A stretch of DNA of 64,000 nt from Escherichia coli (GTDB lineage: Bacteria; Pseudomonadota; Gammaproteobacteria; Enterobacterales; Enterobacteriaceae), in the NCBI RefSeq assembly GCF_003334785.1, contig NZ_QOWV01000007.1; one strand, given 5' to 3'. Every line of letters begins with the position of its first letter. Position 1 is the stretch's first letter. Of the stretch, positions 14,950 to 14,978 are shown piece by piece. A program made the position numbers and the translations under genes. Under the pieces are notes generated by a model that saw only the letters and a list, made by a program, of their open reading frames with translations, had not been told where the DNA came from and made no database searches.

Positions 14950-14978
14950 ATGTGCCGGATAGTTTATCCGGCACATGA
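14950..14978. terminator. Putative bidirectional terminator hairpin between convergent yadS and erpA
   Basis: Perfect 11-bp inverted repeat tgtgccggata / tatccggcaca with a 4-nt loop. Confidence 0.5.

Follow-up and report, generated by a model that had tools for sequence, protein, structure and literature searches.

A stem-loop common to the convergent erpA and yadS transcripts of Escherichia coli and its probable role at their 3' ends

What is the function of the perfect inverted repeat between the convergent genes yadS and erpA of Escherichia coli? It could end both transcripts as an intrinsic terminator, bind a dimeric regulator, belong to the REP elements, or stand in the gap by chance. 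The repeat was analysed within the window, the whole stretch of 64,000 nucleotides, and compared with other Escherichia genomes, with the erpA loci of other genera, and with published maps of RNA 3' ends and of Rho-dependent termination. Gene names were taken from the RefSeq annotation of identical E. coli DNA, and window positions were converted as MG1655 = 191941 - window. The genes and the parts of the repeat are as follows.

14317-14940, plus strand: yadS coding sequence (membrane protein of the TRIC/PF03458 family), stop codon at 14938-14940; from the ORF list and the RefSeq annotation
14987-15331, minus strand: erpA coding sequence (A-type Fe-S cluster insertion protein, 114 aa), stop codon at 14987-14989
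14950-14961, plus strand: left arm of the hairpin, ATGTGCCGGATA
14962-14964, plus strand: loop, GTT (AAC on the erpA strand; GCT in divergent E. coli lineages)
14965-14976, plus strand: right arm of the hairpin, TATCCGGCACAT
14950-14976, both strands: hairpin, able to form in the erpA-sense (minus) and yadS-sense (plus) transcripts; MG1655 176965-176991

The identity of erpA is given by the ORF list, the RefSeq annotation, and an exact protein match to the ErpA cluster. The convergent gap of 46 bp between the two genes, already described from the sequence, was located at 14941-14986. Two very small RefSeq genes also lie in the window: yadW, a small ORF of 21 codons upstream of erpA (15324-15389, minus strand), overlaps the erpA start by 8 nt, and yadX is another tiny ORF upstream of clcA.

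The surrounding 1.1-kb stretch is 100% identical in many E. coli chromosomes, and 5425 of 5426 complete genomes have a single copy of it. A search with the hairpin and its near flanks (37 nt) likewise found one locus per genome in 5425 of the 5426 E. coli genomes, at a database size where BLAST matches shorter than about 20 nt are invisible; the "2 places" per genome returned by this search are the palindrome matching on both strands. The loci found through the exact ErpA sequence of E. coli were all from E. coli, and all had the same hairpin.

Anatomy and variation of the stem

The inverted repeat proposed in the sequence-only reading exists, as ATGTGCCGGATA-GTT-TATCCGGCACAT, with corrected dimensions. 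Arms of 11 nt around a gttt loop had been given, which contains one surplus t; the true arms are 12 nt and the loop is 3 nt. The end had been placed at 14978, which is 2 nt beyond the true end at 14976. The hairpin therefore occupies 27 nt in total, with 12 perfect pairs, six of which are G-C, and is a stable, GC-containing stem-loop. RNA folding of the 46-nt gap gave -19.5 kcal/mol for the plus strand and -18.9 kcal/mol for the minus strand (z = -6.8 and -7.1). No shuffled sequence among 200 was equally stable. Within the 64-kb window, this hairpin is the only perfect stem of at least 12 bp with a loop of 3-8 nt. The expected number of such hairpins per window is 0.037, and at least one appeared in 11 of 300 first-order Markov simulations. 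An Rfam scan of 14000-16000 at E<=10 returned nothing at the hairpin and two chance matches elsewhere.

About 16% of E. coli genomes have one difference within the 37-base hairpin query. In the eight variant sequences sampled, the changes are confined to the flank, the loop (GTT to GCT) and the outermost pair, and the inner 11 pairs are unchanged in all eight. The flank variant, A14947 to G, was sampled from ST95 and from bloodstream and urinary isolates, and it converts CUUCUC to CUCCUC in the tail of the erpA strand.

The same architecture of 12 pairs and a 3-nt loop is found with another sequence in Escherichia albertii, where the erpA strand reads AUAUGCCGGCCA-AUC-UGGUCGGCAUAU. Seven of the 24 stem bases differ between the two species. 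They make up three double compensatory changes (G-C to A-U, A-U to C-G, and U-A to C-G) and one G-C to G.U change; seven random substitutions leave all twelve pairs intact in 3.4e-4 of trials. In a five-sequence alignment, 100% of cells pair on the erpA-sense strand and 96.7% on the yadS-sense strand. This covariation sample consists of one other species, E. albertii, together with the E. coli variants. Both one-sided changes give G.U on the erpA RNA strand and an A.C mismatch on the yadS strand (n=2, p = 0.25), and the E. albertii element folds at -19.7 kcal/mol on one strand versus -15.6 on the other. The pattern of changes points to selection on the RNA helix, mainly in the erpA transcript; for the strand preference, two events are too few for significance.

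Transcript ends and termination around the hairpin

Published data place RNA 3' ends next to the stem, and Rho-dependent regions further away, on both strands. These features, and the tail that follows the stem in the erpA direction, are listed below.

14944-14947, minus strand: erpA mRNA 3' ends (MG1655 176994, 176995 and 176997), 3-6 nt past the stem; Term-seq and TRS/RNAtag-seq
14983, plus strand: yadS mRNA 3' end (MG1655 176958), 7 nt past the stem; weaker signal, one dataset
14925-14949, minus strand: pyrimidine-rich tail CUUCUCUCUUCAACGCCCAUUCUCA (C 11, G 1), a weak U-tract that overlaps the 3' codons of yadS on the opposite strand
14790, minus strand in the window and plus strand in MG1655: peak of the Rho region in the erpA sense, antisense to yadS (MG1655 177151), 160 nt past the hairpin
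15089, plus strand in the window and minus strand in MG1655: peak of the Rho region in the yadS sense, antisense to erpA (MG1655 176852), 113 nt past the hairpin

In the Term-seq data of Adams et al. 2021 (PMC7815308, supplementary file 1), the erpA primary 3' end is at 176994 and 176995, in two of the three entries for erpA. Bar et al. 2023 (PMC10687069, Supplementary Data 2-3) reported erpA ends at 176995 and 176997, with a signal of 0.96-0.99 and an adjusted p near 0. The yadS end was detected in the LB RNAtag-seq data of the latter study (Supplementary Data 3), with a signal of 0.73 and adjusted p values of 0.02, 2e-5 and 8e-7; no yadS primary end is among the entries listed in the Term-seq tables of PMC7815308. 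The expression of erpA is about 6-9 times that of yadS in the PMC10687069 data, in which yadS is weakly expressed. Both ends are printed in PMC10687069 with the same hairpin as the predicted fold. Thus, in the published maps, a steady-state end lies 3-7 nt past a stable stem with a U-poor tail on both strands. A literature search found no paper specifically on the erpA terminator.

The Rho regions were taken from PMC7815308 (supplementary file 2), where Rho scores refer to 800-nt windows and the best position per region is given. The region at 177151(+) has a Rho score of 16.7 (p 1e-35), with 131 reads upstream and 15 downstream in the absence of bicyclomycin, and 200 and 382 in its presence. 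The region at 176852(-) has a Rho score of 4.85 (p 5e-8), with 86 and 20 reads without the inhibitor, and 62 and 70 with it. Bicyclomycin-sensitive read-through is therefore seen downstream of the hairpin on both strands, although bicyclomycin also releases new antisense transcripts, so that the downstream reads need not all originate at erpA or yadS.

Sequences past the stem were compared using the T-weight, a position-weighted T score. The yadS-sense tail GAACAACA has no U in 8 nt and a T-weight of 0.01. The erpA-sense tail CUUCUCUC begins with C and has four U in 8 nt; its T-weight is 1.58, and 0.91 in the A-to-G flank variant. Canonical terminators score 4-5.5 on this scale and the E. albertii element 3.36; the E. 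albertii U-tail, UUUCUCUCUUU, is better than that of E. coli. A lenient consensus terminator scan accepted the site on the erpA (minus) strand and not on the yadS strand. No U-rich tract of 7-8 nt was found directly past the stem on either strand, and the combination of an A-tract before and a U-tract after the hairpin is also absent, the E. coli flanks being AAGAGAGAAG and GAACAACAG. Over 78 nt past the stem, the C/G ratio is 1.93 on the erpA strand and 0.73 on the yadS strand, which becomes C-rich further on only. The tail on the erpA strand is, by its base composition, a candidate Rho-loading (rut-like) tract.

Similar arrangements have been described by Dar and Sorek 2018 (PMC6061677), who showed that Rho-dependent E. 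coli transcripts end just past stable, U-poor stem-loops. Such stem-loops block PNPase and RNase II, which trim the RNA back to the stem; termination itself takes place further downstream, and the stem is closely followed by rut sites. Transcripts of a mixed kind, with fewer U, were also reported, and switching between the two mechanisms in evolution was considered easy.

Taken together, these data make it probable that the repeat encodes a stem-loop common to both convergent transcripts, which marks and protects their 3' ends, that Rho carries out much of the real termination, and that the erpA side is possibly a leaky intrinsic terminator. The palindrome would provide one RNA stem-loop in both the erpA and the yadS transcripts and would mark each mature 3' end. 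On the erpA strand, the hairpin followed by the C/U-rich tail CUUCUCUCUU might be at most a leaky intrinsic terminator, and Rho would halt the polymerases that read through, about 160 nt downstream in the region antisense to yadS. The yadS strand has no U-tract; there, transcription would cross the hairpin, and Rho would stop it about 113 nt downstream in the region antisense to erpA. On both strands, the RNA would be shortened by 3'-to-5' exonucleases as far as the base of the stable stem (-19 kcal/mol), which would leave ends 3-7 nt past it and shield the body of the mRNA. Exonuclease trimming at this hairpin is suggested by analogy with the stem-loops of PMC6061677. How the erpA strand divides between intrinsic and Rho termination is likewise inferred; the intrinsic share could be large, since the consensus scan calls the site and ends 3-6 nt past the stem would also fit intrinsic termination.

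A classical bidirectional intrinsic (Rho-independent) terminator, in which the hairpin and its flanking tracts release RNA polymerase directly in both directions, appears unlikely. It would explain why a 12-bp stem with G-C pairs stands between convergent genes and why 3' ends lie just past it on both strands, as well as the call of the erpA-strand site by the consensus scan, and the same gap carries a textbook A-tract/hairpin/T-tract in Klebsiella, Enterobacter, Citrobacter sp. FP75 and Enterobacter sp. Ag1. However, it does not agree with the yadS tail, which lacks U, nor with the erpA tail, which begins with C, has only four U in 8 nt and loses one more U in the common E. coli variant. Bicyclomycin-sensitive regions downstream on both strands also argue against it; when Rho is inhibited, the reads past MG1655 177151 even exceed those before it (382 versus 200). 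The sequence-only reading, which had suggested a bidirectional terminator, is thus supported in so far as the repeat is a two-way transcript end, with mapped ends 3-6 nt (erpA) and 7 nt (yadS) past the stem. It is not supported in the classical intrinsic sense, given the yadS tail without U, the weak erpA tail, and the Rho regions 113-160 nt beyond.

A symmetric protein-binding site had been raised as an alternative, and it is very improbable that the repeat is such a DNA site, acting between the two genes through a dimeric regulator. The perfect dyad symmetry of its 27 bp is in keeping with many operators; however, the site lies downstream of both genes and has no promoter position. In addition, the seven stem bases changed in E. 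albertii keep the pairing rather than the sequence, and the one-sided changes produce G.U pairs on the erpA RNA strand, which are sensible only in RNA. No match to the CRP or IscR type-2 patterns was found at the hairpin. The operator was rejected on its position downstream of both genes and on a sequence that is not kept in E. albertii while its pairing is. A functionless chance palindrome would have its small size in its favour and no other point, and it is extremely improbable: it was rejected because of the rarity of such stems (0.037 expected per window), the conservation and covariation of the stem, and the transcript ends that map to it. Elsewhere in the window, TGTGATGACGATCACA (50639-50654) is the sole zero-mismatch TGTGA-N6-TCACA, the CRP half-site pattern, and it lies in the divergent promoter region of gcd and hpt.

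Other hairpins of the window were also compared with the published ends. In the convergent gap of about 40 bp between can and hpt, a hairpin of the CCGGAT type, TGCCGGATG-CAACA-CATCCGGCA (49942-49964), has the same design as that at erpA/yadS. It is U-less, and published primary 3' ends are found right past it, for can at 141970 (-) and for hpt at 142000/142004 (+). An 11-bp perfect hairpin past mrcB, UACCGGAUGGC-GAGUU-GCCAUCCGGUA (24635-24661, the minus strand being mrcB-sense), is followed by AAAUAAC without a U-tract, and carries the published mrcB primary 3' end (MG1655 167310-167312). CCGGAT/ATCCGG stems occur in three of the approximately 13 perfect hairpins of the window.

Relationship to REP elements

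REP elements were described by Ton-Hoang et al. 2012 (PMC3333891) as imperfect palindromes of 30-40 nt, with a stem mismatch and a conserved GTAG 5' of the foot (CTAC on the complementary strand); both the GTAG and the mismatch are needed for binding and cleavage by the transposase. 

It is very improbable that the erpA/yadS hairpin is a functional REP variant, acting as a multi-copy repeat, as a target of the REP-associated transposase, or as a site for gyrase or IHF. Several features resemble a REP. The y-type REP has GCCGGAT...ATCCGGC as its outer stem, and this motif is found in the arms. In Salmonella and Citrobacter, full REP pairs occupy the orthologous position, and they can be aligned with the 5' flank and arm of the E. 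coli hairpin. The 10-mer GTTGTTCATG, for which 0.2 occurrences would be expected, is present only twice in the window: before the hairpin on the erpA strand, and before a true REP at 53145-53178. However, the high copy number of a REP is missing, the hairpin being found at one locus in 5425 of 5426 genomes; multiple genomic copies had been named beforehand as the finding that would indicate a REP variant instead of a terminator. The hairpin is also 27 nt long and perfectly paired versus 30-40 nt and imperfect with a stem mismatch, it has no GTAG/CTAC (its flanks on the erpA strand are CATGTG and CACATC), and in E. albertii the stem is no longer REP-like while the hairpin is kept. The hairpin is therefore not a REP. 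The NC_000913.3 record, as covered from 137000 to 178000, contains CDS rows only, with no repeats even at obvious REPs (fhuB/hemL and gcd/cueO), so the missing REP label at the hairpin is uninformative.

The orthologous elements suggest a relationship of another kind. In Salmonella enterica and Citrobacter werkmanii, a REP pair lies here in a 100-bp gap, its first member being GCCGGATGGCGACGCGAGCGTCTTATCCGGCCTAC, and another REP pair is found in a 119-bp gap in the C. freundii complex. The Salmonella and Citrobacter elements end in GGCCTAC. At equal distance from the erpA stop codon, E. coli TGTTCAT-GTGCCGGAT can be aligned with TGTTCGTTGTGCCGGAT of Salmonella. Judged from these alignments, the hairpin is plausibly an eroded remnant of a REP/BIME. 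The order, with the REP first and the hairpin later, would follow from the distribution of the two states among the genera and their phylogeny.

Several repeats were seen elsewhere in the window. A true y-type REP, GCCGGATGCGGCGTGAACGCCTTATCCAGCCTAC (53136-53178), lies past gcd and is preceded by GTTGTTCATG. Three REP-like palindromes (a BIME) are located between fhuB and hemL (18350-18470), and the published fhuB primary 3' end is at one of them. Downstream of hrpB, two hairpins (27310-27331 and 27374-27394) have the common stem CCCTCTCCC/GGGAGAGGG, and one of them carries the published hrpB 3' end. They resemble a short boxC-like repeat known from E. coli and are presumably copies of it.

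Turnover across genera and comparison with known systems

Inspection of 80 gammaproteobacterial erpA loci, by eye and without a tally, showed a hairpin and then a T-run past erpA in most of them. In several of the genera where yadS faces erpA, textbook bidirectional terminators are present in the gap, for example in Klebsiella (AAAAACGGTAACC-TTAA-GGTTACCGTTTT) and in Enterobacter sp. Ag1 (AAAAAAGCCGCG...CGCGGCTTTTTTT). The enteric erpA/yadS gap exists in three states: a canonical A-tract/hairpin/U-tract terminator, a REP pair (gaps of 100-119 bp), and a minimal hairpin of 27 nt (gap of 46 bp). Hairpins past erpA in most of the 80 loci, together with textbook terminators in several genera, suggest that the position of the transcript end is old while the sequence turns over. 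Such turnover of sequence is usual for terminators.

A tentative history, to which we give somewhat less than an even chance, would begin with an ancestral bidirectional intrinsic terminator of the canonical kind, as Klebsiella and Enterobacter have it to this day. This terminator would have been replaced by a REP pair in the ancestor of Salmonella, Citrobacter and Escherichia, and the REP pair would have been reduced to the 27-nt hairpin in Escherichia. All features needed for REP mobility would have been lost, selection acting on the erpA RNA would have preserved the hairpin as a protector of 3' ends in both directions, and termination would have passed to Rho. If true, this would be a clean natural case of a terminator switching its mechanism through the capture and erosion of a mobile repeat.

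Both the instance and the class are already documented, in the genome-wide 3'-end tables of E. coli K-12 and in the work on U-poor protective stem-loops, and the history as a REP remnant is the sole mildly new point. The importance of the site beyond annotation is small. It advises caution, in that a perfect palindrome in a convergent gap does not by itself amount to a bidirectional intrinsic terminator. It is also a small example of turnover at one site, from canonical terminator to REP pair to minimal hairpin, with the position of the transcript end fixed throughout.

The erpA/yadS hairpin can finally be compared with three known systems. Like the bidirectional intrinsic terminators of Klebsiella, Enterobacter and Citrobacter sp. 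FP75, it lies in the same gap and ends both transcripts with one symmetric hairpin; unlike them, it lacks the pair of A-tract and U-tract. It shares with REP/BIME elements the extragenic location at gene 3' ends and the outer stem motif GCCGGAT/ATCCGGC, and it is the positional homologue of the first REP in the BIME of Salmonella and C. werkmanii; REPs, too, are known to stabilise the mRNA upstream of them. However, it has neither the inner GC stem nor the GTAG/CTAC tetranucleotide, and it is single-copy, 27 nt long, perfectly paired and not joined into a BIME. With the class of Dar and Sorek (PMC6061677), it has in common a stable stem-loop directly upstream of a precise steady-state 3' end, few U after the stem, a C-over-G tract past the stem (on the erpA strand), and a bicyclomycin-sensitive region 100-200 nt beyond. 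It differs from that class in that a single hairpin serves two convergent genes, and in that the erpA strand keeps a partial U/C tail, which may make it a mixed intrinsic/Rho case.
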